The notes: generated by a model not told the origin, from the letters alone. DNA of 20,000 nt from a bacterium (GCA_013360215.1 JABWCP010000009.1:107597-127596); one strand, 5' to 3'; counted from the stretch's first letter, positions 4,240 to 18,692 are shown. Translations and numbers: made by a program.

Positions 4240-5370
4240 TTATTCCAATCGGCAAATAAATCCCCATCCGCCGCCTAATTCACTGACAGCCAGGATCAAC
4301 TCGTTATCCCCTTTTTTCAGAGGTATATAAAGCGCATCATTTTCGGAATCCATGATCCCCAAAAATCCCGGATCGCGAAAATACTGTGCACTGCGCCCGC
4401 GATAGAGTATTTGCCCGTTTAGGAATACGCACACTTCATCGCTGTATCCGATATACAGTTTTTTGATTTGATCGCGATCCGACGTGATTTTTGTTTTAGC
4501 ATAAACTATTTTAGAACCGGGTTGCGCTTCCAATCGTTTAGAAAAATCATTGGCAAAAGAAACCCGCAGATGCGGTGCTTCCCGATAACGATAAAGCGTC
4601 ACCATGCCCGGCGCCTCTGTTTCTACCGATTGCCATACTATTGATTTTTTCTCAGCTTGGGTCAGCGGTGATTCGACGTTACGTGACAGCGCATCCATCG
4701 ACGGTGAAATTTCCCATTGCTTCAACACATTAGGCAGCATAGCCGGATGTTTTCTCACCCACGGAGCATCCGTAGTTTTTTTAACTTCGAAATTGGAAAA
4801 ATATGTCGCGCCGGTTAAAACCGCTAAAGCGATAGAGCCTTTCTGAATTCCGCTTTTTAGATCGTCCATCACCAATACCGGCTTATCCATATTTTTTACA
4901 AACAACCGCGCTTGCGCTCCGGAAACTTCGAGCCGTAAATGGAACCACTCGTTTTTAGGTATATCCACAGCGCCGATAAATCCCGGCCCGCTGTACAGCT
5001 GCCAATTGAGCCCCGTATTGAGGATCGGGGTATATTGCATGGCATCAGCAAGTCCTGATTTGTGTTGGCGGAGATATACCCATTCTCCGTTTACGCCGTC
5101 TTCGGATATGCGAAATTGTATCCCAAAAAAACCACGCGCCGCAGGTGTCGAAACGTCAACGTCCATAACACCGTCACGCAATTCCAAATTTTTTAAGACG
5201 GCGGCGCCGCCATTGAGAAAAACACTCTTCCGACCTTGATAATCTACAAACCCGCTTTGGCCTTGCAGATCCCATATCGTAGAATCCATAGCCATAACCT
5301 GCGAAAAAACATTTCGCGCCTGGAGGAGGCTTGTTAAAAAGAAGGCCGCAATAAAAATAAATACGCGCAT
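4240..5370 (-). CDS. Secreted hypothetical protein; N-terminal ConA/LamG-like (DUF1080-like) beta-sandwich plus C-terminal jelly-roll domain
   Basis: Signal peptide MRVFIFIAAFFLTSLLQA. Motifs GIQFR, EWFHLRLEVSG...LFV and TYFSNF resemble DUF1080/LamG folds. GYSDEVCVFLNG and LKKGDNELIL resemble a sugar-binding jelly-roll. AGGGG RBS. Confidence 0.65.
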   Translation of the reverse strand: MRVFIFIAAFFLTSLLQARNVFSQVMAMDSTIWDLQGQSGFVDYQGRKSVFLNGGAAVLKNLELRDGVMDVDVSTPAARGFFGIQFRISEDGVNGEWVYLRQHKSGLADAMQYTPILNTGLNWQLYSGPGFIGAVDIPKNEWFHLRLEVSGAQARLFVKNMDKPVLVMDDLKSGIQKGSIALAVLTGATYFSNFEVKKTTDAPWVRKHPAMLPNVLKQWEISPSMDALSRNVESPLTQAEKKSIVWQSVETEAPGMVTLYRYREAPHLRVSFANDFSKRLEAQPGSKIVYAKTKITSDRDQIKKLYIGYSDEVCVFLNGQILYRGRSAQYFRDPGFLGIMDSENDALYIPLKKGDNELILAVSELGGGWGFICRLE

Positions 5371-5521: not shown

Positions 5522-6214
5522 TCATTGCCCTGATGTCGTTAGTTTCTTCTTGGCTGTTTCATTCCAGCGGATAACCATTTGACCAAATTCATCATCTCTT
5601 TTTAACGCCATAAAACGATTGGTCTCATCAAAAAGAAATCCATATAAACCCAACTTCATATATAGTGCGCACAAGCGATCAAAATTACTTGGTTCAAAAT
5701 ATAACGAAGGAAATTTGGAAATTAGTCGTTTGAGACTTAATAACGCTGTTTCCGCATACTGATGCTCTTCAAACCAGTAGATTGCGCGCATACGCTCGGT
5801 CAAATACGGTACAGATTGATTTTCAGCGCGTGTTTCGTTAACCCGGCCATAGGTAAGGCCAAATTTTTGATCGTTGGTTCGTTCAACCGGTTGCGAGGGA
5901 AGCTGCTCCGCTTCGATGCGCGTGATCGCAGAAACCAAGTCGCGTTTGTTATTAACAAACATATCTTCGATGTAAAAATACCCGCCGGCCGGCGCATCAT
6001 ATACATCCGTTTCGCGATAGATTTTGAGCGTGGCATCGGCTTTAGTCAAAACATATGTACGCGGCGCTATTTTTTCTTTACTCCCTAGAGGCTGCCACTT
6101 CATGGATGTAACATCCAGATACATCGCATCGCCCTTTTCGAGTTTTAGCCAAATTTCCGATTGTCCCATCAATGGTGAGGTAAGAAGAATAAAACATATC
6201 GCCTTAAAAATCAT
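5522..6214 (-). CDS. Exported protein with FecR-like N-terminal beta region and TPR-like helical C-terminus
   Basis: Start ATG at 6214 overlaps the upstream stop (6204-6206). Signal peptide MIFKAICFILLTSPLMG. KGDAMY...W.PL...I....V.T..DA.L.I resembles the start of FecR domains. AETALLSLKRLISKFP lies in a TPR-like helical region. Confidence 0.55.
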   Translation of the reverse strand: MIFKAICFILLTSPLMGQSEIWLKLEKGDAMYLDVTSMKWQPLGSKEKIAPRTYVLTKADATLKIYRETDVYDAPAGGYFYIEDMFVNNKRDLVSAITRIEAEQLPSQPVERTNDQKFGLTYGRVNETRAENQSVPYLTERMRAIYWFEEHQYAETALLSLKRLISKFPSLYFEPSNFDRLCALYMKLGLYGFLFDETNRFMALKRDDEFGQMVIRWNETAKKKLTTSGQ

Positions 6215-8174
6215 ATACGTGTACCGTTCCATGGACTACTCCGTTTTTTTGAATCACTTCATCATAATACTGGCGCACACCTTCGCGATGCGCATGTTCA
6301 AAACCACCGTTTATAACAGTTGTTTCCAGCGGCAACCAAATCGTCACGCGTCCGGTTTTATCGGGGCGGGCAACATATTCAAATTCGGATAAACCCAACT
6401 GATCCACGGCATTAACCGGAATACTCGTATCCACAAGCAAAAATACATGCCCTATGGAACCCGGTTTGGCAGTTGGAATATTGATATTTTCAGTGAGCGT
6501 CGGGCGAATATCCACCACGGCGCAAGCATGGCCTATAGCCATAAGATTGGTAGCCATAAATGCAACAAGGTCTTCGCAATCGCCGGACTTTTGTCGCAGT
6601 GTCTCCGAAGGATATTGCACACGTTCATTGACAAAAGTCGTGGTAGGATCGGATACATAACGTAAATTTTTGCCGACAGCCGTTACAAATTTTTTTAACG
6701 CATGAAACTTATTATGAAAATCTGAATACGCGGAATCGGTTCCTATGGTCAACAAATTACTTTTGGCAAACGATTGTATTTCAGGCTCATCCGGAGCTAT
6801 AAAGTAGCGCAATCCCCACGTATCGCCATCCCAGCTATGGATATCATATAATGTCACCGGAAAACTGGACAGTGTGATGTGTTTGCCGCGTACTTCACCG
6901 GTAATTTTCACCTGAGCCACCATGCCGGATTGTTCTACGCTCTGATCCGGTATGTAAAAAAATAAGGGCACCGATTTGATCTCATGTGGTGCTAAATCAA
7001 TCGAAGACGAACGAAATATTTCGCCCCACGCACCGGCTTCGGCATGTATGACAACGCTCAGGTGTTCATCCGACGCATTATGTACATCCATCTGTCCCAC
7101 CGGATTGTATGCATAATAGGCGCGCTTGGCCGTATAAACTTTTGTCTGAAAAATTTTCATATTCACCATTTTTACGTAATCGGCAGCGCGGCTTCCTGAC
7201 AAATCATAACGCAATCCGATTTGCACCGTTTTGTGAGGCAACTGATTGGTAAGTTTTCCGCTCGATATGTCGCCGTGACGATTAAGCCATTGACGAAAAT
7301 TTTGTGATCTGAAATTTTCCGCCAAATACCATGTGCTTTCGTAACCGGCAAGTAATGTGAAGCCGCCACTCAAATCGTAACTTAGATTTAATTTCCACAC
7401 TTGATAATCCGACGGCCGCAAACTTCTGTAATATTCATTGTTCACCTGTAACGCACCATATTTCAATTGTACATTACCGCCCCAAGCATCCCGGCCTACA
7501 CGCGTGGTCATCGAATGCGAACGGTAACGATATTGAACATCCAAAAACCCGCTCAACTTATTTTTCAATGCATAATGCATGCTGTCGTTACCCATGCGTA
7601 TCATTCGCCAAGGCAATATGCCTGTCGTTACGGCAAACGGACCCCAATAGCTTGTCATCGCACCATAGCCTAATAGTGACGAACGGCGATGGGATGCAAA
7701 TTCATAATCCACGTAATACACTTTTGATGTCAGTTCTTTTACCAAAGTTGACACGATTTCTTCTTTTTCAACGAGAATTTGCGAACCGAAAGCAATTTCA
7801 AATCGTGCAAAACGGCGGCGCAACTCAAGAGCCGCCGGTAAATCAACCACATACGTGTGCGCATGGTTAGTGATTTGGCTACGATCCACTAATTTAACGC
7901 TGTCGGGCAACACCAACGTCGTGGTGCCGGGCATTATCGTAAAGGGTAGTTGTTGATTCATATTCACCAATACCGAAAAGCCATACAGGCCGTGATTGTG
8001 CATATAGTGAATCCGCGATGCGACGTATTCTTTTGAAGCAAATTGGCGAGCGGTGTACTCCGATACAAACGTGAGGCGTGCATCATAACGCATAGGCCGA
8101 TACGCATCCGCATCGTTTTGCGCAAAAAGTGATGCGGATACAAAAACTAACATCAATAGTCCCCATCTAGTCAT
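6204..8174 (-). CDS. Exported multidomain protein: probable outer-membrane beta-barrel, Ig-like linker and C-terminal transglutaminase-like (Cys-His-Glu) domain
   Basis: Start MTRWGLLMLVFVSASLFA (signal peptide) overlaps the upstream stop (ATGACTAG). Amphipathic aromatic strands (FLDVQYRY, WKLNLSYDL, VQIGLRYDL). C-terminal LRYVSDP..VQYPSETL..SGDCED (Cys codon 6576-6578), GHVFLL (His 6447-6449) and WLPLETT. Confidence 0.75.
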   Translation of the reverse strand: MTRWGLLMLVFVSASLFAQNDADAYRPMRYDARLTFVSEYTARQFASKEYVASRIHYMHNHGLYGFSVLVNMNQQLPFTIMPGTTTLVLPDSVKLVDRSQITNHAHTYVVDLPAALELRRRFARFEIAFGSQILVEKEEIVSTLVKELTSKVYYVDYEFASHRRSSLLGYGAMTSYWGPFAVTTGILPWRMIRMGNDSMHYALKNKLSGFLDVQYRYRSHSMTTRVGRDAWGGNVQLKYGALQVNNEYYRSLRPSDYQVWKLNLSYDLSGGFTLLAGYESTWYLAENFRSQNFRQWLNRHGDISSGKLTNQLPHKTVQIGLRYDLSGSRAADYVKMVNMKIFQTKVYTAKRAYYAYNPVGQMDVHNASDEHLSVVIHAEAGAWGEIFRSSSIDLAPHEIKSVPLFFYIPDQSVEQSGMVAQVKITGEVRGKHITLSSFPVTLYDIHSWDGDTWGLRYFIAPDEPEIQSFAKSNLLTIGTDSAYSDFHNKFHALKKFVTAVGKNLRYVSDPTTTFVNERVQYPSETLRQKSGDCEDLVAFMATNLMAIGHACAVVDIRPTLTENINIPTAKPGSIGHVFLLVDTSIPVNAVDQLGLSEFEYVARPDKTGRVTIWLPLETTVINGGFEHAHREGVRQYYDEVIQKNGVVHGTVHVYDF

Positions 8175-10338
8175 GACGATATTCCTTGATGAGTTGGATA
8201 AGGTCATCGTAAAAAAATTTAGGCGTATTGCGAAATCGTAAACGTATCACCTCTTCCGGAGATTCGTTTTTTTTCACGCCCGTGCGAATGCGTTCGGAAA
8301 TATTGTTTTGATATTCATCTATGCGCTGCTTCAAAGCCTTTGGTTCGGATATATCCGATGTGCCGCGTAAATATTCAAACATAGCCTGAGGTTCCTGTTC
8401 GCACCGTATCATCGCCTTGATCACCCAGCCGCGAAAATATTCGGTCACTGTGATGCGATGTAAACCCAGATCATCGGCTACCGCAGACATGGCACGATGT
8501 TTAAATTGATGGTCGCGGAGTGCATGGAGCACCCGCTCGGCCAAAGATTGCTCTGAATCAGAAAACGTTGCGCCGCGAATTTCGAAATCCGCCGGTAAAA
8601 TATAATTACGATGCCGCATGCGTGCATTGATCACACTGCGCTGAGTTGCTGCTTTTAGCTCACGCACATTGCCGGGCCAAGCCAATGTGCAGAGCCATTG
8701 GACGAGATGATCGGAGTATTTGAGTTCCGGAGCAATTTCGTACACAAACTGACGGAATAGAAAATCAATATCAACCGTACGTTCGCGTAAAGGTTTCAGC
8801 GGCAACACAAAACCGGCAATACGATAATATAAATCTTCGCGAAACTGTTTATCCCGGATCAATACCGATATATCCCGATGGGTCGCCGCAATAACACGAA
8901 CCGATACGCTTTTCGAAACAACGCCGCCGACGCGTTCAAACCGACCTTCCTGTAAAACCCGAAGAAGTTTAACCTGAAATGCCGGGCTTGTCTCTGCGAT
9001 TTCATCCAAAAACAACGTACCATTATCTGCCATTTCAAACCGGCCTGGCTTGGCTTGTACCGCGCCCGTAAAAGCGCCTTTTTCATATCCAAATAACTCC
9101 GCTTCGATCAAATTGTCGTTAAATGCCCCACAATTAACAGCTACAAAAGGACCCGAAGCGCGCTGTGAACGGCGATGAATAAATTCGGCGATACGTTCTT
9201 TCCCAGTGCCGGATTCACCGGTGATCAGCACCGGAACATTTGACTGGGCTACCTGATCGGCTTTTTGGAGAAGCTCTGCGACGGGCGAATCTTTATGGTA
9301 ATAAATACCCTGCGCTTCACGGCATTCCGACAAATCCAACGGGCGAATTTGATCGGATATTTTTTCGTAAAAATTGAGCCGATACCTTAGATCCGTCAGA
9401 TCATCCGATGTGGCAGAGGCAACCTCTTTTGTCACAGTAACGGTGCGACGCTTGATCCCCAACATGAACGTCGAAACGAGTATCGGCACAAGAGTCCAAC
9501 CTATACCGATAGGCAAATAAATACGCAAAAAGTATAGACCGGCAGCGAACGCACACCAAATCAATGCCGGGGCGCCTATCCAAATCCAACGTGTATCACG
9601 AAGCGACAAAAAGCTCACTACTGCCGTACCGGCGAAAAGAACAACCAGCAACCATAGCGGCCATTGTTTCCACATACGACCTTGTTTGATTTCCTCCGCA
9701 GCCCATATCTGAATAAGACTGACGGGGTTAACCGAACCTTGAGGTGACGCTACATACGAGGTTACACCGGGATAGTCAAAATAAAATACAACACTTCGGT
9801 TGCTCAAATCCGAATTGGACGACAAAAACGCACTCAGATGCATATCCGGAAGTAAAGTATCGGATGGCCAGTGCAATATAACGGTTTCTTCAGGTACTTC
9901 TGTTAAAGCTGAAACCAGCGAATGATCACCCGGCGTATAGATCAGATAGGCATTTTCGATTTGCCAATGGGCCGCAAACGGAAGAAATGTCCGACCGGCA
10001 GGAAACGATTGGCCGCCAAGTATGGTATTATTTTCCTGAACACGTTCCGTCATAAGAAAAATCTTATCATCCCTTACGCACTCATGATAAAAAACTTCGT
10101 CCGACTCCGGATGCAACGCATCGGCCGAGGGAAACGCCATATCAAAATAGATCGCTTGCGCGCCGTTTTGTTTAGCATGTTGTGCTGCGACCGCATACCA
10201 TCGTCGAGCCAAAGGCCATCCGCCCAGATGCTCTACATCGTGTTTACCGATAGCAATCCGAATCACCGGCCGTTCCTGCGCCGTAAGTAACGGGTTGCAA
10301 AACAAAATCAAACTAAGGCAAGCGACGATCTTCTTCAT
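8167..10338 (-). CDS. Membrane-anchored sigma-54-dependent transcriptional activator with extracytoplasmic CHASE2 sensor
   Basis: Signal/TM MKKIVACLSLILFC. CHASE2 signature IAI..HDVEHLGGWPLARRWYA...GAQAIYFDMAF, then three TM helices. AAA+ domain with Walker A GESGTGKE, ELFGYEKGAFTGA (GAFTGA at 9061-9078), Walker B LFLDEI, FREDLYYR and WPGNVREL. HTH AMSAVADDLGLHRITV. Confidence 0.92.
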   Translation of the reverse strand: MKKIVACLSLILFCNPLLTAQERPVIRIAIGKHDVEHLGGWPLARRWYAVAAQHAKQNGAQAIYFDMAFPSADALHPESDEVFYHECVRDDKIFLMTERVQENNTILGGQSFPAGRTFLPFAAHWQIENAYLIYTPGDHSLVSALTEVPEETVILHWPSDTLLPDMHLSAFLSSNSDLSNRSVVFYFDYPGVTSYVASPQGSVNPVSLIQIWAAEEIKQGRMWKQWPLWLLVVLFAGTAVVSFLSLRDTRWIWIGAPALIWCAFAAGLYFLRIYLPIGIGWTLVPILVSTFMLGIKRRTVTVTKEVASATSDDLTDLRYRLNFYEKISDQIRPLDLSECREAQGIYYHKDSPVAELLQKADQVAQSNVPVLITGESGTGKERIAEFIHRRSQRASGPFVAVNCGAFNDNLIEAELFGYEKGAFTGAVQAKPGRFEMADNGTLFLDEIAETSPAFQVKLLRVLQEGRFERVGGVVSKSVSVRVIAATHRDISVLIRDKQFREDLYYRIAGFVLPLKPLRERTVDIDFLFRQFVYEIAPELKYSDHLVQWLCTLAWPGNVRELKAATQRSVINARMRHRNYILPADFEIRGATFSDSEQSLAERVLHALRDHQFKHRAMSAVADDLGLHRITVTEYFRGWVIKAMIRCEQEPQAMFEYLRGTSDISEPKALKQRIDEYQNNISERIRTGVKKNESPEEVIRLRFRNTPKFFYDDLIQLIKEYRHD

Positions 10339-10384
10339 AAAATAAACGGCGCTGACTTTTGTAGCCAACGCCGTAGGTTCTCCG

Positions 10385-11287
10385 TTATTGTTTTTTCAAT
10401 TTGACTAAAACATTGTGCCAGTAATCGGCTTCAATTTGTAAGTTATATGTTTTTCCGTCGAACTTTCCTGTAGTGGTTAGCGGGTCTGGGAAATGCTCTT
10501 CAATAACGCCAACCAAGTAATCCGTCTCTTGCTTATTCCACTTTGAGGTAAGCAGTTGTAACTGTTCGGCTGGAATCACAATTTCATCAGTCTCAACTGT
10601 ATATTGAAAAAAAGCATATTCAAATCCACCTGCTACAGTATCTGCATAATTTGGTTTATAGGCATACAACTCAATCCAACCCGATTTGGAAGGGCGATTA
10701 AATTTAATAAGTAAATCCTCGCCATCACCAACCACTTGATTAACAGCTATATTTGTAATCTTCAATTGACTAGGCATTGGAATACTGGCCGTAAAATCAT
10801 TAATTTCCGGTGAATTTTGCCCGGATATCGTTATTTGACCGTTATTCACTATTGTGAATGGTTGATTACTTTGCTTTTCATAACTAATTATATCAAGCGT
10901 ATCAATATGTGCTGGAATTCCGTTTTTTTCCGGCCGATCAATAGTTATCCAGCTCTGATTACGCGTAATCTCTGTACCGCTAAGTTTCAATGTTCCATAA
11001 TCTAAAAACTTGGAAAGGAATCGACCATTAATATCGGTATTAAGATTATGTTGCAAACTCACGTAATAAAAAACAGGGTCTCCTTCCCCTACATCACTTT
11101 GAGAAATAGCAATTAACATACTGCTATCGCCCGGCGGATAATAGTGCGAGCTGGTTCGCAATACAGGATCATGACCAATGATCAGCGTTTGATCCTTTCC
11201 TTTGTCCGACATAACATCCGACCCGTCCTTGTCACATCCGATCGCCAATAAGGCGATGGTTACAATTAGTGCGACTGATTTTGGCAT
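10385..11287 (-). CDS. Uncharacterized lipoprotein
   Basis: AAGGAG RBS before ATG 11287. Signal peptide MPKSVALIVTIALLAIG-C with a lipobox. Beta-rich mature part with no recognised family. Confidence 0.82.
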   Translation of the reverse strand: MPKSVALIVTIALLAIGCDKDGSDVMSDKGKDQTLIIGHDPVLRTSSHYYPPGDSSMLIAISQSDVGEGDPVFYYVSLQHNLNTDINGRFLSKFLDYGTLKLSGTEITRNQSWITIDRPEKNGIPAHIDTLDIISYEKQSNQPFTIVNNGQITISGQNSPEINDFTASIPMPSQLKITNIAVNQVVGDGEDLLIKFNRPSKSGWIELYAYKPNYADTVAGGFEYAFFQYTVETDEIVIPAEQLQLLTSKWNKQETDYLVGVIEEHFPDPLTTTGKFDGKTYNLQIEADYWHNVLVKLKKQ

Positions 11288-11337
11288 ACATTTCTCCTTG
11301 TTGTTGGTTATCAGTGTTGTACACAACTCGACAACAA

Positions 11338-11353
11338 ACTAAATTCATGCCAA
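11338..11353 (-). promoter_or_regulatory. Putative sigma-54 (-24/-12) promoter
   Basis: Minus strand TTGGCATG-AATT-TAGT versus consensus TGGCACG-N4-TTGC. Strong -24 element, correctly spaced -12 G but imperfect -12. About 50 nt upstream of the lipoprotein start and next to a bEBP gene. Confidence 0.55.
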
Positions 11354-11357
11354 AGAA

Positions 11358-11370
11358 TAACTTATTAATT
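11358..11370 (-). promoter_or_regulatory. IHF-like binding site
   Basis: Minus strand AATTAATAAGTTA, one mismatch to WATCAANNNNTTR, with a 5' A-tract, immediately upstream of the -24 element. Confidence 0.4.
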
Positions 11371-11393
11371 TTTTTCAATATACCTTCATTCGA

Positions 11394-11455
11394 AAGTGAA
11401 GTGAGTGCAGTATATAAGTGAAGTGATGCATTTTCACATCACAAATGCATGTGAT
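11394..11455. promoter_or_regulatory. Cluster of direct and inverted repeats, candidate upstream activator sequence
   Basis: AAGTGAAGTGA at 11394-11404 and 11416-11426 (22 bp apart). Inverted repeats GTGATG-N8-CATCAC (11423-11442), ATGCATTT-N9-AAATGCAT (11426-11450) and ATCACA-N6-TGTGAT (11438-11455). Confidence 0.45.
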
Positions 11456-11540
11456 CCAAGGCACTCAAGAAGTTAATTAGAACTTGCTTTTATAATACCT
11501 ACACAACAATGTAGCCTGTCTCTGGAAATTACTTTAGAAC

Positions 11541-11576
11541 AAAAAAAGCCCGTTTACCATTGCGATAAACGGGCTT
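11541..11576 (-). terminator. Rho-independent terminator of fhs
   Basis: Minus strand AAGCCCGTTTA-tcgcaatgg-TAAACGGGCTT followed by further T residues (7-T run), about 20 nt after the fhs stop. Confidence 0.88.
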
Positions 11577-11595: not shown

Positions 11596-13293
11596 CTAAA
11601 AAATTCCGCGTATGACGCCGTTATCATCCATATCAATCGCCTCCGATGAAGGCACTGACGGTAACCCGGGCATGGTCATCATTTGCCCGGCAATGGCATA
11701 AATGAAACCCGCTCCCGCAGAAGCTTTGATATCATCAATAGGAACCACAAAATCTTTCGGACGCCCTTTGAGTGTAGGATCATGTGAAAGTGAAAGATGC
11801 GTTTTAGCAATACATATCGGCAGTTTGTCAAGACCTTCTTCTTTGAGCATTTTAATTTTCGATTTGGCTTTGGACGACAGGGAAATGCCCGCACCGCCAT
11901 AGATTGTTTTTACGACCGTGGCCATTTTATTTTCGATCGTATCCTGGACATCGTAGGTAAATTTCACTTCCGATTTTTCATCGCAGGCTTTGACTACTTC
12001 TTCGGCCAGCGCTGTTCCACCCATACCGCCTTTGCCCCAAACGTCAATCGGTATCACCGCACGCGCTCCGGTTTTAACGGCAATATCGCGAATGGCTTGT
12101 ATTTCGTTCTCCGTGTCCGAGGTAAAACGATTGATCGCCACGACGACCGGTACACCAAAACTGCGAATATTTTCGATGTGTTTTGTAAGGTTCTCACAAC
12201 CTTTGATCACGGCTTCGACGTTTTCTTTTTCCAATAATGCCTTATCAATCTTCTTACCCGGAACGGCTTCAAACCCGCCGCCGTGCATTTTGAGCGCTTT
12301 GACCGTAGCCACGACCACGGCAGCCGAGGGACGCAATCCGCTTTGACGGCACTTGATATTGATCAGTTTTTCCGCGCCGCAATCCGCACCAAAACCGCAT
12401 TCCGTCACGACATAATCGGCAAGGCGTAAGGCTATTTTATCTGCAATAACCGAATTATTACCCGTGGCGATATTGGCAAACGGTCCGGCATGCATGATCA
12501 CAGGAACGCCTTCCAGTGTTTGAACGAGGTTCGGTTTGATGGCGTCTTTGAGTAAAACCATCAGTGCGCCGACGACATTCAGTTGGCGTGCATATACGCC
12601 TTTTTTATCCCGTGAAGTGCCGACAAGAATCGTCTCAAGACGTTTACGCAGATCCTTGAGGTCTTCCGCGAGGGACAGGATTGCCATGATCTCACTGGCG
12701 GCCGTGATATCAAATCCCGTTTCGCGCGGGATACCGTTATTGCTGCCGCCTAATCCGACGATAATATCACGCAACGCGCGATCATTCATATCCATCACGC
12801 GACGCCAGTATATATTATTGATGTCCAGATTCAACGGATTACCTTTGTGCAGGTGATTGTCAATAATAGCCGCAAGAAGATTGTGTGCCGTCGTGATCGC
12901 GTGAAAATCACCGGTAAAGTGCATATTGATATCTTCCATCGGCTGCACTTGCGAATACCCTCCGCCGGTCGCACCGCCTTTGACACCAAAAACCGGTCCC
13001 ATCGAAGGCTGACGTAATGTCGAGATCACATTTTTTCCTATTTTGGCCAACGCTTGCGATAATCCGATATTGACGACGGTCTTGCCTTCACCGAGCGGCG
13101 TTGGGTTGATCGCCGTGACAAAAATAAATTTTCCAATTTTTTTGTCCTTCAGGCGGTCCAATACTTCTAGTTTGATCTTGGCTTTATGTTCACCGTACAA
13201 CTCAATATCGGAGGCATTCAATCCGATCTTTTTGGCAATTTCAGTAATCGGCGTAATGGGTGATTCCTGAGCAATTTCAATGTCGCTTTTCAT
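11596..13293 (-). CDS. fhs: Formate--tetrahydrofolate ligase (FTHFS)
   Basis: MKSDIEIAQ start, TAINPTPLGEGKT, LRQPSMGPVFGVKGGATGGGYSQVQPM, HAGPFANIA, ICIAKT and MPGLP. 565 aa is the typical length. GAGG RBS at 13301-13304. Confidence 0.98.
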   Translation of the reverse strand: MKSDIEIAQESPITPITEIAKKIGLNASDIELYGEHKAKIKLEVLDRLKDKKIGKFIFVTAINPTPLGEGKTVVNIGLSQALAKIGKNVISTLRQPSMGPVFGVKGGATGGGYSQVQPMEDINMHFTGDFHAITTAHNLLAAIIDNHLHKGNPLNLDINNIYWRRVMDMNDRALRDIIVGLGGSNNGIPRETGFDITAASEIMAILSLAEDLKDLRKRLETILVGTSRDKKGVYARQLNVVGALMVLLKDAIKPNLVQTLEGVPVIMHAGPFANIATGNNSVIADKIALRLADYVVTECGFGADCGAEKLINIKCRQSGLRPSAAVVVATVKALKMHGGGFEAVPGKKIDKALLEKENVEAVIKGCENLTKHIENIRSFGVPVVVAINRFTSDTENEIQAIRDIAVKTGARAVIPIDVWGKGGMGGTALAEEVVKACDEKSEVKFTYDVQDTIENKMATVVKTIYGGAGISLSSKAKSKIKMLKEEGLDKLPICIAKTHLSLSHDPTLKGRPKDFVVPIDDIKASAGAGFIYAIAGQMMTMPGLPSVPSSEAIDMDDNGVIRGIF

Positions 13294-13428: not shown

Positions 13429-14199
13429 TTAGTGGCGATTCAAAAAATCCATCACGATTTGACAAAATACATCGGCTTTTTCATGATGAATCCAATGCCC
13501 GGCATCCGGTATCATCTCTAATGCTGACGAAGGAAAGTGTTTTGCTATTAGCTCCGCGTCATCACGAAGATTATACATGGATTTTTCACCGCCGACAAAT
13601 AGTGTAGGACCATGAAACATATCGCTTTCCGAAGCTTTGAATCGTACTATTTCATTGGCCGCAAATTCCGTCAAAGCCGGAAGATTAACACGCCAATACA
13701 TCCGATCGTGATCTCGCACCAGGTTGGTAATCACAAAGGATCGTACGGCCGGATTTTTGATTCCCTCTGCAAGGGCCGATTCCACTTGTTTTTTTTCTTT
13801 ATAAAGATTCAGATCCACGGCATTCATCGCTGTGAGAATTTCGATCAAACCCGTGCCGTATGAGCGCGGTGCAATATCTTCTACGATCAACGCTTTAACT
13901 CGCTCGGGATGTGCAAAAGCGTAATTCATCGCGACATGGCCACCCATCGAATGGCCCAACAAGTAAAATTCATGCAAATGCAAACGGTCAACCAACGCCT
14001 CAATATCTTTACGCATCGCCACGATAGAATGTTCGGGATCGTGCGGTGAAACTCCGTGGTTGCGCAGATCCGGAATGATCAAGCGGTAATGGTCGGATAA
14101 TTTTTTGGCTACCGAATACCAGTTGCGTTCACTACCCAGCAGGCCGTGCAGTATCACCAGTGTTTTCGGGCTGCCGTATTCGACAAAATGTAATTTCAT
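13429..14199 (-). CDS. Alpha/beta-fold hydrolase (YbfF/ABHD11-like esterase)
   Basis: ILHGLLGS oxyanion motif, DLRNHG, nucleophile elbow GHSMGG, VEDIAP and catalytic His in AGHWIH. GGAG RBS before ATG 14199. Confidence 0.92.
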   Translation of the reverse strand: MKLHFVEYGSPKTLVILHGLLGSERNWYSVAKKLSDHYRLIIPDLRNHGVSPHDPEHSIVAMRKDIEALVDRLHLHEFYLLGHSMGGHVAMNYAFAHPERVKALIVEDIAPRSYGTGLIEILTAMNAVDLNLYKEKKQVESALAEGIKNPAVRSFVITNLVRDHDRMYWRVNLPALTEFAANEIVRFKASESDMFHGPTLFVGGEKSMYNLRDDAELIAKHFPSSALEMIPDAGHWIHHEKADVFCQIVMDFLNRH

Positions 14200-14287
14200 A
14201 CGCTCCGTTATATTGGCGCGGAAGTTAGTTTCGCTTATATCCAATTGCAACGGTTTTTACAAAACGAAGGATTATTACCGAATCGGC

Positions 14288-14316
14288 TTGCGCTTGGTTT
14301 GGCGCTGTTCTAATTT
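14288..14316 (+). promoter_or_regulatory. Possible sigma-70 promoter for the DUF350 operon
   Basis: TTGCGC-N17-TAATTT, ending 25 nt upstream of ATG 14342, in the divergent intergenic gap. Confidence 0.35.
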
Positions 14317-14341
14317 AAAGAAAAAAACAACAGATCAATCT

Positions 14342-15190
14342 ATGGACATTACTTACCTCACATTCGTTTTAGGCGCCGTCGTTACACTTTTGATCCTTGC
14401 GCGCCTCGTCAATCAATTTCTCATGCGGGAACGCCTCACCGATGCGCTAACTGAAAAAGATCGTTTGGCAACCGGTATCGCACTCTCGGGCTATTTGTTC
14501 GGCGTGATGATGATCATCATAGACGTACTCAGCGGCGAAGGGCATAACGATTGGCTCAAAGATTTTTTACTTGTCGGAATTTACGGATTGGCCGGGATCG
14601 TATTTTTGGTTTTTGTCAGCGTGATGGAGCTGCGTCTGATCCTCTCTGCCAAAGCATTGGATGCTGTTCGCGAAGGCAATGTCGCCGCCGCCATTACGGT
14701 CGCTGCTTCATACATTGCGACATCGCAGATCATCGGCGCCGTCGTATCCGGCGATAATACCGGCGGCAATTGGCTGACGGCTGTTATTTTTTTCATTATC
14801 GGTCAGACCACGCTGCTGATCATGACGTATGCATTTCGGTGGCTCACGGCGTATAACGATGCCGAAGCCATCATGCAAGGTAATGCTGCCGCCGCGCTTT
14901 CGTATGCCGGGGTCATGATCGGTATCGCTATTATTGTAGGCACAGCCTTACGCGGTGACTTCATAGACTATCCCACCAGCCTTGTGGATTATGCATGGTC
15001 GCTGGTGATCGTCGTGGCGCTTTATCCGATCCGCCAATTTTTAGTGCAAGGTGTTTTACTCGGGTGCGGATTTAGTTTTTATGGCGGTAAATTAGATGAA
15101 GAAATTTCCAAAGATCGCAATATCGGCGCCGGATGTATTGAGGCAACGACCTATATCGCCTCGGCACTTTTAGCCACGGCATTACTGTAG
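14342..15190 (+). CDS. DUF350 (YjfL-like) membrane protein with internally repeated domains
   Basis: About 8 TM segments. Repeated motifs EKDRLATGI, REGNVAAAI, MQGNAAAAL and KDRNIGAGC match the DUF350 'GN.A.G' repeat. Adjacent to a GspS-like gene, as is typical. Confidence 0.85.
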   Translation: MDITYLTFVLGAVVTLLILARLVNQFLMRERLTDALTEKDRLATGIALSGYLFGVMMIIIDVLSGEGHNDWLKDFLLVGIYGLAGIVFLVFVSVMELRLILSAKALDAVREGNVAAAITVAASYIATSQIIGAVVSGDNTGGNWLTAVIFFIIGQTTLLIMTYAFRWLTAYNDAEAIMQGNAAAALSYAGVMIGIAIIVGTALRGDFIDYPTSLVDYAWSLVIVVALYPIRQFLVQGVLLGCGFSFYGGKLDEEISKDRNIGAGCIEATTYIASALLATALL

Positions 15191-15203
15191 TAATATTAAA
15201 TCT

Positions 15204-16496
15204 ATGCGCACCTCCGAGGTAAAATACACCGATCCTTCGGTTCCGCGACGCGACCCGTATTTTGATTTTGCAAAAAAAATCACGGATTCGCATATCCTCA
15301 CCGATCCTTGGATTGACGGCGATCCGCGTTTTTCGGACGAACCGGTGATCCTCGGCGCCGGAACTTATGCATTGATGCAAAAAGCGGCCGAACACATCGG
15401 CGCTTTATATGACGAATTGGTGCGCATCATTCTTCGCGAACCTCATTGGCTCGATGATTATTTCCATTTGACGCCGCATCAAAAGATGCTTTGGTTTGCC
15501 TCCGGCGGACGATGGCATGGCATGGCGCGACTGGATATGTTTTTATGTACGGACGGACGTCTGCAAGTATGTGAAATGAATTCCGATACGCCCAGCGGTG
15601 AAGCGGAAGCCGTTTTGATCAATCAGATTATTCGATCGCGCTTTCCGCGTTTTACCGATCCCAATGCCGGATTGGAAACGCAATTTATACGTATGGTTTT
15701 ACGTCTCTGGGGCAAACGTACATGGCCCAGGCTTTCTCCGACGGTCGGCATCGTGTATCCGACCGAAATGCCCGAGGATCTCTCCATGATACGCTTGTAT
15801 CAGCGTTGGTTGGAATCCCGCGGCGCTCATGTCATATTGGGTTCGCCCTACAATCTGGGCAGCACTGCGCAGCGACTGACGTTACTGCAAAAACCCGTGG
15901 ATGTATTGATTCGGCATTACAAAACAGATTGGTGGTGCGAACGCTTGCCGGTGTGGAAAGATCAGGAACCTTTTCCCGACGCGCTTCCGCTCGTCAAACC
16001 ATTGCAACACCTGATGCGCACCTGGCTTGCGGGACAGATAGCGATGATCAACCCGCCCGGCGCTGTGCTTACACAAAACAAACTGACAATGGCTTTTTTT
16101 TGGGAACACCTGCGTAAGTTTTCACCTACGGCGCGGAATACGATACGCACGTGGATCCCGGAAACGCGTCGCCTGATAACGAAGGAAAGCAAAAAACTGA
16201 ATAAAAATGAATGGGTACTCAAAACCGATTACGGATGCGAAGGCGATGAAGTGATCATCGGTAACGATGTCAGTGAAACACTGTGGAAAGAATCGCTGTC
16301 CAAAGCTATTCCCAAACACTGGATCCTTCAGCGTTATTTTTCGTCAATCCGCATCGGGCGCGAAAATCTAATTCCAAATTTCGGCCTGTATCTCGTCGGA
16401 GGACGTGCGGCCGGTATTTATACACGTTTATCCAATACGGCCACGGACGGTACGGCGCTCAGCGCAGCGACATTGATTGACCAACATTCTCACTAG
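15204..16496 (+). CDS. Glutathionylspermidine synthase-like ATP-grasp ligase (YgiC/YjfC family, no amidase domain)
   Basis: ARLDMF, VCEMNSDTPSG (family E.N.DTP motif), NP...LTQNK, WVLKTDYGCEG, ILQRY and GLYLVGG..AGIYTR. Confidence 0.88.
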   Translation: MRTSEVKYTDPSVPRRDPYFDFAKKITDSHILTDPWIDGDPRFSDEPVILGAGTYALMQKAAEHIGALYDELVRIILREPHWLDDYFHLTPHQKMLWFASGGRWHGMARLDMFLCTDGRLQVCEMNSDTPSGEAEAVLINQIIRSRFPRFTDPNAGLETQFIRMVLRLWGKRTWPRLSPTVGIVYPTEMPEDLSMIRLYQRWLESRGAHVILGSPYNLGSTAQRLTLLQKPVDVLIRHYKTDWWCERLPVWKDQEPFPDALPLVKPLQHLMRTWLAGQIAMINPPGAVLTQNKLTMAFFWEHLRKFSPTARNTIRTWIPETRRLITKESKKLNKNEWVLKTDYGCEGDEVIIGNDVSETLWKESLSKAIPKHWILQRYFSSIRIGRENLIPNFGLYLVGGRAAGIYTRLSNTATDGTALSAATLIDQHSH

Positions 16497-16506
16497 AACA
16501 TAAACT

Positions 16507-18039
16507 ATGGCAAAAAGAAAAACCAAACGTAATCAAAAAGCCCAAACACCCGCATGGTGGAATGCCATGATTTCACGCCGTGAAGCCGGCCAACGATTGG
16601 CAGCCCTCGCAACCGGCGCTGCAATGCTGCCCTTCGCATCCATTCTTACGGGCTGTGGTGAAGAGGTCGAACTCGATGCTCTTGAGTTGCAGCAAAAACA
16701 AGGCTGGCAGGTCGGTGCGGACGGCGAAAATCTTGACTTCAAAGACGAACAAACTCGTGACAGCCTCGGTCAGGCGTGGGAAAATTATGCCGATCCGGCG
16801 GCATTGATGGTGGCCTATGAACCCAAAAATTATCGCTGGAAACCTTTTAAGGTTACGACGTTAGTCCAATCGCTAAGTCAGGAAACGTTACGTAAACAAG
16901 TGAAGCCGGTATTATCCGACGCGATGAAAACCGCCTATGCGCGCGGGCTCGGCATGCGCGAGATCATTCAAAAAATGGACAACCCCTCATCCACGATGAT
17001 CATCGCCGATCTGCACGGGGAAGAATCCGTAGCATTCGGCGCGGCATTAGCCGACGTCGCCAATGTGGTCATCGGATTTGATAACTGGCCGCACCCGCAA
17101 GGTGTCGTACCGGCACATCGCACGCTCGGTGCGATGATGTACTATGCACGCGAAGTAAGCGTAAAAACGGAAGAAAAACTTTCGTGGGATGCACCGGCCG
17201 TGATTTTATTGGACAATCATCGCTTGGGCGAATATACCGATGAATGGGATGTATTTGATAATCGTTACGTGGCCAAAGTGCCTTCCGCGCCATCACTTGC
17301 GTCGTATAAAGTCAGTCGGGTTTTATATGTCATACCGGATCGTGACACCAAAAACGAACTGGATGATCTCAATGACGACTTTGTTTACTACAAAGAAAAA
17401 AATATCAGCGTGGATCTGTTGCCCATGTCGGATTTCAAGCCAGCCGTCGCTGCGGCCATGGCTACATCGGCCTCGGCTAAAACATCCGCCGATTCGATGA
17501 TCGCGGCATACACAGGGAGCGACTCCGCGATAGCCAAAGCCATGACCGCACCGGCACAAAAAGATACTGTCGTCGCAACACCGGCATCCACGCGAACCGT
17601 ATATCATTACGGCGGCGGTCCATCCTATTGGCCGATATTTTTTGGTAACTATAATACGCCTTCGACGATCCGTCGCCCGGGCGGTTATCGTGCGCCTTCG
17701 CAAGGGCCGTCGAAACCGGAATACAAACCGGAACGTCGTCCGACATTGTTTTCTTCACGTACCGTCGGAAGTCAAACCAGCGGCGTGGGCAAACAAAAAC
17801 CGACCGGATTTGGCCGTGTATCCGCCAATGTTAATTCCGACGGCAATGTCACCCGCGTTCGCCAGTCACGCAATTACAGTTCGACCGGCACATCCCGTGC
17901 GTCGCGTTCAACTTCAACGTCATCTTCGTCGCGTTCCTCGCGGAGTTACCGGAGCTCGTCGTCCAAAAGTTCATCGTCCCGCTCTTCGTCAGGTCGCTCC
18001 GGATCGTTTGGCCGCAGTCGCAGCAGTTCTTCATCATAA
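16507..18039 (+). CDS. Putative Tat-exported lipoprotein with unknown core domain and Ser/Arg/Gly-rich C-terminal tail
   Basis: ISRREAG twin-arginine, h-region and lipobox LTGC. Globular core (DLHGEESVA, FDNWPHPQGVVP, FDNRY), an Ala-rich linker, and a tail ending RSSSGRSGSFGRSRSSSSS. Confidence 0.78.
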   Translation: MAKRKTKRNQKAQTPAWWNAMISRREAGQRLAALATGAAMLPFASILTGCGEEVELDALELQQKQGWQVGADGENLDFKDEQTRDSLGQAWENYADPAALMVAYEPKNYRWKPFKVTTLVQSLSQETLRKQVKPVLSDAMKTAYARGLGMREIIQKMDNPSSTMIIADLHGEESVAFGAALADVANVVIGFDNWPHPQGVVPAHRTLGAMMYYAREVSVKTEEKLSWDAPAVILLDNHRLGEYTDEWDVFDNRYVAKVPSAPSLASYKVSRVLYVIPDRDTKNELDDLNDDFVYYKEKNISVDLLPMSDFKPAVAAAMATSASAKTSADSMIAAYTGSDSAIAKAMTAPAQKDTVVATPASTRTVYHYGGGPSYWPIFFGNYNTPSTIRRPGGYRAPSQGPSKPEYKPERRPTLFSSRTVGSQTSGVGKQKPTGFGRVSANVNSDGNVTRVRQSRNYSSTGTSRASRSTSTSSSSRSSRSYRSSSSKSSSSRSSSGRSGSFGRSRSSSSS

Positions 18040-18056
18040 TTTAAGGATTACTAAGC

Positions 18057-18692
18057 ATGAATCGTCGCGGTTTTTTTAATAACATTTTTAAGTCGGATGA
18101 ACCCTCGGGTCCGATTCATTTTTACGGCATTCAGATCGTCATCAATACCGGTATCAATGATGAAACCCGTGCCAAACTGCATGCGGCGATCAACGTGCCC
18201 GTTAAAGAAGGTGAGACCCCAGAGGAAAAAAAAGCATTTTTTAAAAATGTCGCAGCTCTCTTACTCGAGAACGAACCGTTTTTTGAATATGGGTACTGGG
18301 ATTATCTGACGGATGCGGCCGAAGCGCAGGCCGAATTTGATTCGTGGGTCAACGAAATCGAAAGCAGTATGGCAACGGAGTCCGGCGAAGTCGGTGAAAC
18401 GATGGACGAGCAGTATCGCATGAGCGCAGAAAAACAATACGTCGTTATTTCGCTCGCCTTCTTAATCGAAAATGTACCGACACAAGAATCCTTTCAAGGT
18501 ATGATAGATATACCGGAAGAATCGTATTTTCTCCGCGAAACCTGGCCTAAATTGATCGAAGCCGTTCCGTATCTGGATTTTAACTACGTGATGGCCGATG
18601 CCGTATTTATTATGCCGGGCAACGAAAAAGACGGATTTTCATTTGAAGATTTGCACTCGGAAGGATGGGAATATCTAAAACCGATATCATAA
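18057..18692 (+). CDS. DUF1517-like protein (soluble domain only)
   Basis: AAGGA RBS. TPEE...ALLLENE.F..YG, AEAQAEF, QYVVISL, V...P...DGFS.EDL and terminal YLKPI follow the DUF1517 C-terminal domain pattern (from recall). Very acidic. N-terminus MNRRGFFNNIF. Confidence 0.65.
   Translation: MNRRGFFNNIFKSDEPSGPIHFYGIQIVINTGINDETRAKLHAAINVPVKEGETPEEKKAFFKNVAALLLENEPFFEYGYWDYLTDAAEAQAEFDSWVNEIESSMATESGEVGETMDEQYRMSAEKQYVVISLAFLIENVPTQESFQGMIDIPEESYFLRETWPKLIEAVPYLDFNYVMADAVFIMPGNEKDGFSFEDLHSEGWEYLKPIS

Follow-up and report, generated by a model that had tools for sequence, protein, structure and literature searches.

How might the state of a bacterial envelope reach a sigma-54-dependent promoter in the cytoplasm? 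The question is raised by a 20,000-nucleotide stretch of bacterial DNA (GCA_013360215.1 JABWCP010000009.1:107597-127596; here called the window, with positions counted from its first letter), in which four co-oriented genes on the minus strand lie between 5522 and 11326. They encode a lipoprotein, a sigma-54 activator with a CHASE2 sensor domain, a protein combining a predicted outer-membrane barrel with a transglutaminase-like cysteine domain, and a secreted protein of 236 residues. The source genome comprises 3.7 Mb in 56 contigs, and DNA of the same stretch recurs in activated-sludge metagenomes. On balance, we think it probable that the locus is a self-contained module linking envelope state to sigma-54 transcription. 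A preliminary description of the four genes had proposed a trans-envelope relay of a surface signal. The periplasmic partner on CHASE2 (in a complex model) and the sigma-54 output of that proposal find support here, whereas the surface signal and the analogy with FecA and FecR do not.

The activator and its conserved gene neighbours

The activator is a one-component, membrane-integral sigma-54 activator that holds sensor and output in a single polypeptide. It matches Sigma54_activat (PF00158) at 224.3 bits against a cut-off of 20.2, a family matched in all nine orthologues, and also matches the AAA lid and NifA/NorR-type AAA+ models (E up to 1e-87). The Walker A motif GESGTGKE at residue 374, the GAFTGA motif at 421 and the Walker B motif LFLDE at 442 are invariant in a nine-sequence alignment. 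Ahead of the AAA+ domain, a hydropathy scan places membrane helices at residues 228-246, 252-272 and 277-295, followed by KRR.

The periplasmic part is assigned to CHASE2 (PF05226). By itself, the window protein reaches 25.0-25.1 bits, just under the cut-off of 26.3, and 28 bits when combined with neighbouring matches in the same frame; the domain is found in 9/9 orthologues, with a best E value of 1e-10. Among precomputed annotations, the protein cluster of the activator carries PF05226 and PF00158, and PF05226 is recorded on six of seven homologues of the periplasmic domain (query residues 20-240). The topology fits the CHASE2 rule set out in PMC5192318, by which the domain is extracytoplasmic with an anchor before it and membrane helices after it: in the activator, an N-terminal anchor precedes the domain and three membrane helices follow. 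Elsewhere, the same genome encodes two canonical CHASE2 proteins (G000:C38:49965-51023 and G000:C45:43139-44116; 159 and 128 bits).

The genes for the activator, the barrel protein and the 236-residue protein form a conserved trio. The profile of the 236-residue family, run against one genome per species, gave eight loci, and tblastn located the three genes in the same order in 7/7 loci with upstream flank; in one further genome, contig ends interrupt the cluster. Within the window's phylum, the family occurs in 3 of the 20 genomes of the collection. A sample of 401 genomes from the phylum of another locus, L019, contained 17 with a family match (8 strong and 9 weak), and in the seven strong loci that remained, retrieved along with one duplicate of L016, the trio is collinear in all seven. 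Altogether, 15/15 loci with sufficient flank show it collinear; they come from 14 genomes, one of which holds two copies, and have amino-acid identities of 28-56%. These loci are distributed over the window's small phylum, Bacteroidota/Chlorobia-type metagenome-assembled genomes, Thermochlorobacter, Calditrichia and others; a word-indexed protein search with the barrel protein, which gave at least two matches, has no bearing on distribution. The linkage of the genes in other genomes, for which the preliminary description had suggested looking, is thus borne out, and the domain make-up that it gave also stands, from the activator and CHASE2 domains to the barrel fold, the cysteine domain and the TPR-like half described below.

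The nine weak loci (L051-L059, in G242, G162, G386, G418, G214, G122, G238, G358 and G382) belong to a more distant subfamily (E 1e-9 to 1e-18). A gene for an Ig-like plus transglutaminase-like protein adjoins the 236-residue-like gene in all nine, and a CHASE2/AAA+ gene lies within 9 kb in five, in varied orientation. Since the pair is kept even at this distance, the barrel-enzyme and small-protein genes are the tightest pair of the set.

Predicted partners in the periplasm

The 236-residue protein is a candidate partner of the sensor. As the preliminary description had proposed, CHASE2 was modelled together with the small protein, using activator residues 20-240, the mature 236-residue protein and a separate alignment for each chain. 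Three runs scored 0.66, 0.67 and 0.66, compared with 0.07 for the best of three controls; the partner has a predicted local distance difference test (pLDDT) value of at least 80, and at least 83% of the contacts are common to the runs. Of 157 solved complexes, 116 attain this mark, as do 2 of 215 mismatched pairs; these counts hold only roughly because our own alignments were supplied. On the small protein, the helix/TRIEAEQLP region and LYGFLxDE make the confident contacts, which reach the WPxxRRW and HPESD stretches of CHASE2, whose modelled contact face is the invariant GGWPxxRRWY/HPESD. Invariant residues account for 11 of the 19 contact residues on the side of the small protein (3.1 expected, P 1.6e-5) and for 5 of 21 on the CHASE2 side (2.1 expected, P 0.04), in a test that is not fully independent because conserved residues also enter the model through the alignments. 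The model supports, but does not show, binding of the 236-residue protein to the CHASE2 domain.

The small protein belongs to a tiny family, with seven members in a word-indexed search of 5.8 billion proteins. Its AlphaFold model (pLDDT 80.9) comprises a beta-sandwich, a helix, a disordered linker and a TPR-like domain. TRIEAEQLP and GLTYG, the motifs best conserved in the family, lie in the linker. The C-terminal half superimposes on the TPR protein Cdc23 (Z 10.6, root-mean-square deviation (rmsd) 2.5, 87 residues aligned) and on BamD, LpoP and many TPR chains at Z ~10, values that are generic for helical repeats and lie under the tool's caution level of ~13. Pfam TPR models match weakly in 2 of 25 family members. 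The glutamine of TRIEAEQLP was considered as a transglutaminase substrate; several of the 25 members have H, Y, T, K or A at this position, and the proposal was therefore rejected as a strict rule.

The preliminary description had regarded this protein as FecR-like, an identity that sequence comparison rejects. By Pfam, FecR (PF04773) has no match in the window protein at E<=0.1 and in 0/25 family members at E<=1, and hhalign of the family against the genome's own two FecR proteins yields probabilities of 2.7% and 0.09%. FecR chains are likewise absent from three fold-search lists, but the TPR half fills these lists, which hardly probe the N-terminal domain, and the absence therefore carries no weight as evidence. 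The two FecR-domain proteins of the genome are encoded on C32 and C50, and none shares a contig with another or with the canonical CHASE2 proteins.

These results bear on a FecA-FecR-FecI-like chain, in which the barrel would perceive an external ligand and a FecR-like periplasmic protein would signal to the inner-membrane activator. Such a chain accords with the linkage of the genes and with the predicted binding of the small protein to CHASE2, and CHASE2 is tied to FecR-domain/TPR proteins and to an outer-membrane barrel in three papers (PMC9239204, PMC5192318, PMC13001267). It is quite unlikely nonetheless: besides the FecR results, a profile search run exhaustively over 1.84 billion cluster representatives gave 34 proteins, all of the same small 236-residue family, and the barrel is of another kind.

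The barrel protein was modelled with a pLDDT of 66.9 overall and of 70-90 over residues 30-325. Its barrel resembles a FadL homologue (3dwo_X, Z 17.8, rmsd 4.0, 259 residues aligned), OmpG (2f1c_X, Z 16.2), PorV (6h3i_F, Z 16.1) and accessory barrels of the Bacteroidota BAM complex (Z 16-17), with a Foldseek probability of 1.00 for FadL and OmpG; these matches show fold likeness only, and family membership is not claimed. The C-terminal VHVYDF was considered as a barrel beta-signal, and two orthologues end otherwise. The barrel is small, with 14 strands and only ~300 residues, unlike a 22-strand TonB-dependent transducer, and the Pfam families Plug, TonB_dep_Rec and STN are unmatched in all nine orthologues. 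It has also diverged to 19-23% identity or beyond detection, whereas the Ig-like and enzyme part retains 42-49%, a pattern that would fit an anchor better than a specific receptor. The earlier claim that the barrel/enzyme protein perceives a surface signal is therefore not upheld by the model, with its 14-strand barrel lacking transducer features and its enzyme placed in the periplasm, and the proposed sigma-54 analogue of FecA-FecR-FecI signalling fails because FecR homology is missing and the barrel is of the wrong type.

The enzyme part probably faces the periplasm, as both ends of a 14-strand barrel are periplasmic and the domain should therefore hang into that compartment. Four residues, Cys 533, His 576, Asp 582 and Glu 617 (667-residue numbering), are invariant in nine sequences around an SGDCEDL motif. 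When the enzyme-family profile was compared with solved structures, chains of LapG were matched over the cysteine motif (4fgo_A, E 2.9e-5; 4u65_E, E 0.0015). In the window protein, Transglut_core stays at 17.9-20.1 bits, below its cut-off of 23; one orthologue attains 23.0, and five of nine match at E<=0.05. DUF553 is also matched below its cut-off. We know of no previously described barrel in the outer membrane to which a cysteine protease-like domain facing the periplasm is tethered.

The match to LapG raises the possibility of a strict Lap-like switch, in which the barrel-tethered protease would cleave the 236-residue protein and the CHASE2 protein would be a LapD-like receptor sequestering protease or substrate. 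The small protein would then be built like the N terminus of a LapA-type adhesin, with a retention-module sandwich, a helix and a flexible linker. Its N-terminal sandwich has 5ix9 as its sole match among solved structures (Z 9.4, rmsd 3.0, 74/76 residues; Foldseek probability 1.00, template-modelling score 0.75), and 5ix9 served as template for the retention module of the LapA adhesin (bioRxiv 10.1101/198937). The 9/9 adjacency of the barrel-enzyme and 236-residue-like genes in the distant loci, with an activator within 9 kb in five, also accords with a protease and its substrate. On the other side, a small beta-sandwich matched at Z 9 is commonplace, and the small protein has no TAAG/PAAG di-alanine site, indeed no AAG anywhere. 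Peptidase_C93 (PF06035) is matched at only 12.5-13.3 bits against a cut-off of 27, in three of the seven C-terminal domains scanned, and the cluster lacks a LapD-type protein, a giant adhesin and type-1 secretion genes. Moreover, the linker's conserved motifs have been modelled against CHASE2 and not against the protease. We regard a strict Lap-like switch, which deserves to be taken seriously as a variant of our preferred reading, as possible but doubtful.

Candidate promoter, probable output genes and gene layout

The candidate output gene of the activator is the lipoprotein gene. A sigma-54-type candidate promoter precedes it (Table 1), with a perfect -24 half and a poor -12 half (TAGTT), the poorest of all loci compared; in most relatives the -12 position reads TTTCA or TCACA in place of the classical TTGCA. 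The strict pattern TGGC-N8-TGC has no match at the candidate, and its two matches elsewhere in the window are at chance level. Taken alone, the candidate is no better than chance, and it is kept because its place is conserved in other loci. TGGCAY-N5-T is found before the presumed true start of the lipoprotein gene in 8/9 loci, at a distance of about 59-73 nucleotides in most and 123 nucleotides in L019; the chance expectation of TGGCAY alone is 0.08 per 150 nucleotides. Of the sigma-54-like promoter proposed earlier, the -24 half and the position are conserved, while the -12 half is poor.

Upstream of the candidate promoter are two direct repeats that may serve as its enhancer, the proximal copy of TCACTTCACTT lying ~42-52 bp from TGGCAT. 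Orthologous loci contain two to three direct copies of nCCnTACACTT(T), spaced by 21-23 bp and placed 47-62 bp upstream of the TGGCAY site (offsets -69/-47 in L010 and -70/-49 in L011 and L017). A composite pattern (repeat, 14-18 nucleotides, repeat, 25-75 nucleotides, TGGCAY-N5-T) gave one match each in 11 of the 25 sequences scanned, every match before the lipoprotein gene, and 0 matches in a reversed-sequence control of 936 kb on both strands. A looser pattern has two matching places in the 3.7-Mb genome of the window, this locus and one on C10. In three further loci, the lipoprotein gene is preceded by TGGCAY, with repeats that are less regular. In L016, a canonical-looking TGGCAT-N5-TTGCA at L016:5126 falls within the gene for an ABC ATPase and was rejected as a chance match. 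The genome encodes rpoN, along with 11 strong activator genes. The conserved architecture of promoter and repeats supports the earlier proposal of a sigma-54 output onto the lipoprotein gene. Just upstream of the direct repeats, at 11438-11455 on the minus strand, an inverted repeat ATCACA-N6-TGTGAT overlapping GTGATG-N8-CATCAC is seen in the window.

The lipoprotein matches no Pfam or NCBIfam family; in the atlas, it resembles hypothetical proteins from Ignavibacteriota and Bacteroidota. Homology extends to the lipoproteins encoded upstream in L010, L011, L017, L021 and L022, and a lipoprotein gene lies directly upstream of the activator gene in eight of the first nine loci, six of these being detectably homologous. 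The lipoprotein gene is the probable target of the module. In four relatives (L045, L047, L048 and L049), a gene for a protein of ~1050 residues stands between the lipoprotein and activator genes; the one at L048:2281-5436 combines CarboxypepD_reg repeats with Por_Secre_tail, the C-terminal sorting domain of type-9 secretion. As the promoter in relatives thus also precedes a large type-9 secreted repeat protein, the output would consist of cell-surface proteins. One genome, G070, has two complete copies of the module (L047 and L050) with different output genes, a lipoprotein and a ~1035-residue protein in one copy and two lipoproteins in the other.

The same promoter invites an effector reading, in which the barrel-enzyme and 236-residue proteins would serve an envelope-stress response as effectors, remodelling or repairing envelope proteins instead of relaying a signal, while CHASE2 senses an unrelated small molecule or membrane cue. 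All these genes lie downstream of the sigma-54-like promoter, in L011 only 2 nucleotides behind the lipoprotein gene, and sigma-54 regulons reportedly (Francke and colleagues, 2011) often concern the cell exterior. In most loci, however, the target gene is parted from the trio by a hairpin or a gap of 122-319 nucleotides, and L016 and L044 keep the trio although the lipoprotein gene and repeats are missing. Direct contact between the small protein and CHASE2 is also favoured by the complex model and the invariant residues at its interface. We consider the effector reading unlikely, and return to that of a sensory module in which the small protein acts on CHASE2.

Table 1. Positions of the module's genes and signals in the window, with the parts of the encoded proteins (residue numbers)
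Feature	Position	Strand	Description
fhs	11596-13293		Upstream of the module; Pfam FTHFS 855 bits
Intrinsic terminator of fhs	11546-11576	minus	14-bp stem with 6 GC pairs, then TTTTTGT; upstream border of the module
Candidate enhancer (upstream activating sequence), two direct repeats TCACTTCACTT	11426-11416 and 11404-11394	minus	Starts 22 bp apart
Candidate sigma-54-type promoter TGGCAT-GAATT-TAGTT	11337-11352	minus	65 nucleotides upstream of the lipoprotein start codon
Lipoprotein gene, 300 residues	10385-11287	minus	ATG at 11287 with AAGGAG before it; lipobox LLAIGC; mechanical open reading frame extends to TTG at 11326
GC-rich hairpin, 12 bp	10346-10374	minus	-20.4 kcal/mol; then TTATTTT, directly before the activator ATG
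Activator gene, 723 residues from MKKIV	8167-10338	minus	Open reading frame from TTG extends to 10368
Barrel/transglutaminase-like protein gene, 656 residues (protein-collection call)	6204-8174	minus	First ATG at 8207
Secreted protein gene, 236 residues	5522-6232	minus	
Activator, parts			N-terminal signal/anchor; periplasmic CHASE2 ~22-225; three membrane helices 228-295; AAA+; C-terminal helix-turn-helix-like region
Barrel protein, parts			Predicted 14-strand outer-membrane barrel ~28-329; Ig-like sandwich ~345-445; C-terminal transglutaminase/LapG-like cysteine domain
236-residue protein, parts			Signal peptide; beta-sandwich 27-87; helix 96-108; disordered linker; TPR-like domain 144-234

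The layout given by the preliminary description is found in the window: all four open reading frames are present on the minus strand, the last three genes overlap, and the terminator of fhs, with its 14-bp stem and T run, bounds the module upstream. The activator stop codon (8169-8167) lies downstream of the barrel start (8174 or 8207), and the barrel stop codon (6206-6204) downstream of the start of the 236-residue gene at 6232. Export signals, also claimed earlier for all four proteins, were judged by eye from the sequences; the lipoprotein has a lipobox, and the activator, barrel protein and 236-residue protein have hydrophobic N termini ending in AQ or GQ, consistent with export of all four.

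The lipoprotein and activator genes do not overlap but are separated by a 46-nucleotide gap that contains the 12-bp hairpin. Comparable hairpins are found in L010 and L017; L011, with its 2-nucleotide gap, has none. Placed between target and sensor genes, the hairpin could act as a partial terminator or attenuator that limits read-through from the lipoprotein gene, or it could alternatively mask the start codon of the activator. The preliminary description also allowed that the activator may regulate its own operon; between the lipoprotein and activator genes stands this hairpin or, in other loci, a gap of up to 319 nucleotides. In a metatranscriptome run from activated sludge (X19), three exact contigs all fall within the activator gene (8814-9038, 9573-9760 and 9746-9897), and none was seen on the other three genes, where the uncovered parts prove nothing. 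The contigs would fit constitutive expression of the sensor, but they may also stem from DNA carry-over, and we conclude nothing from them.

The module is followed, 151 nucleotides downstream, by a minus-strand gene (4240-5370) for a secreted protein of 376 residues with a weak match to 3-keto-disaccharide hydrolases (DUF1080-type). It was rejected as a member, since it has no counterpart in the related loci. On the plus strand, a co-oriented run of genes at 14105-18692 encodes a DUF350 membrane protein and a glutathionylspermidine-synthase-like ATP-grasp protein, as well as proteins of 510 and 211 residues that have no Pfam family.

Proposed mechanism and known systems

In the mechanism that we propose, the 236-residue protein would be a co-sensor or protein ligand of CHASE2, and the barrel-tethered enzyme would set its availability, either by cleavage in the conserved disordered linker or by retention at the outer membrane. 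Conditions at the outer membrane or in the periplasm would decide how the enzyme acts on the small protein. As CHASE2 gains or loses this protein, the change would be relayed through the three membrane helices to the AAA+ domain, which would assemble on the repeats and remodel sigma-54 RNA polymerase at the lipoprotein promoter. Surface proteins, made from the adjacent enhancer and promoter, would be the output.

A bolder version, which we put forward tentatively as possible but rather unlikely, takes the 236-residue protein as the first identified protein ligand of CHASE2 and the module as a periplasmic proteolytic switch. On a disturbance of the envelope, the barrel-tethered LapG-like protease would cut the linker of this adaptor, so releasing or engaging CHASE2 and activating a sigma-54 activator that is still embedded in the membrane. 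If this is true, enhancer-dependent transcription would proceed from an activator that remains in the inner membrane, a mode not described so far.

Several points weigh against reading the locus as a sensory module of this kind. The complex score is the model's own confidence, and the incomplete independence of the enrichment test counts on the same side. The transglutaminase-like domain is poorly modelled (pLDDT 30-60), its Transglut_core and Peptidase_C93 matches stay below cut-off, and its periplasmic placement follows only from the strand count of the modelled barrel. For DNA binding by the activator, Pfam HTH_8 is unmatched at E<=0.1, and the C terminus, with its conserved HRxTVTEYxRGW, has a TetR-type helix-turn-helix as its sole match among solved structures, at E 0.86. 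An AAA+ protein fixed in the membrane would, in addition, have to form a ring on DNA. At the promoter, the poor -12 element of the window counts against the proposed output, as do the repeats, which at ~42-75 bp from the -24 element are close for an enhancer, and L016 and L044, where the trio has neither an adjacent lipoprotein gene nor the repeat element.

What the module would offer, in turn, is a concrete protein partner for CHASE2 with a predicted interface of invariant residues. An AAA+ domain joined to a periplasmic sensor implies either that ring assembly and enhancer binding take place at the membrane or that the cytoplasmic part is released, and a barrel tethering a cysteine protease-like domain would be a new enzyme architecture. 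As the set consists of four genes with their own promoter and enhancer and is found in several FCB-group phyla, it could be rebuilt in a laboratory host. A full-text search of the literature found no description of CHASE2 combined with sigma-54 or an enhancer-binding protein, and nothing pertinent on membrane-bound or transmembrane enhancer-binding proteins was found, as judged by title or abstract.

Classical enhancer-binding proteins are soluble, and their control lies with a partner protein or with a domain of receiver, GAF or PAS type. The activator resembles NtrC, NifA, PspF and ZraR in its AAA+ domain with GAFTGA, its lid, its C-terminal DNA-binding region and the repeats upstream of a -24/-12 promoter (both putative here), but differs in having three to four membrane helices and a sensor domain outside the cytoplasm. 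With FecA-FecR-FecI, the module shares the general logic of an outer-membrane protein, a periplasmic link, an inner-membrane component and transcription by an alternative sigma factor, whereas it lacks a TonB-dependent transducer, FecR homology, an extracytoplasmic-function sigma factor and an anti-sigma mechanism.

The likeness to the Lap system lies in the periplasmic transglutaminase-like cysteine protease motif GDCED, in an inner-membrane receptor with a periplasmic domain and in the 5ix9-like retention-module sandwich of the small partner, which is followed by a helix and a flexible linker (bioRxiv 10.1101/198937). In contrast to that system, the module has no di-alanine site, cyclic di-GMP receptor, giant adhesin or type-1 secretion system; its putative protease is fused to an outer-membrane barrel, and its read-out would be transcription.

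Among CHASE2 systems, cyclases that cluster with FecR-domain and TPR proteins are known from PMC9239204, and a CHASE2 kinase/LysM-FecR operon of Burkholderia from PMC5192318. The Campylobacterota cyclase clusters and the Burkholderia operon resemble the module in that a CHASE2 sensor is accompanied by secreted accessory proteins, one of them with TPR; in the module, FecR is undetected, the sigma-54 activator is in the same polypeptide and an enzyme-bearing barrel is added. In Sinorhizobium meliloti, the outer-membrane barrel NsrA is required by CHASE2 cyclases, and the signal is of protein type (PMC13001267, citing Garnerone 2018 and Sorroche 2020). The NsrA-CyaD1/CyaD2/CyaK-Clr pathway is thus similar in that an outer-membrane barrel is needed for an inner-membrane CHASE2 response, though the likeness is one of architecture. 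Its output, as described there, is cyclic AMP with a separate CRP-type regulator, whereas here CHASE2 is fused to a sigma-54 AAA+ activator, and the module adds an enzyme domain on the barrel and a separate beta-sandwich/TPR protein. The links of CHASE2 to FecR/TPR proteins and to a barrel were already known; what would be new here is CHASE2 trans-envelope sensing with a fused sigma-54 output.

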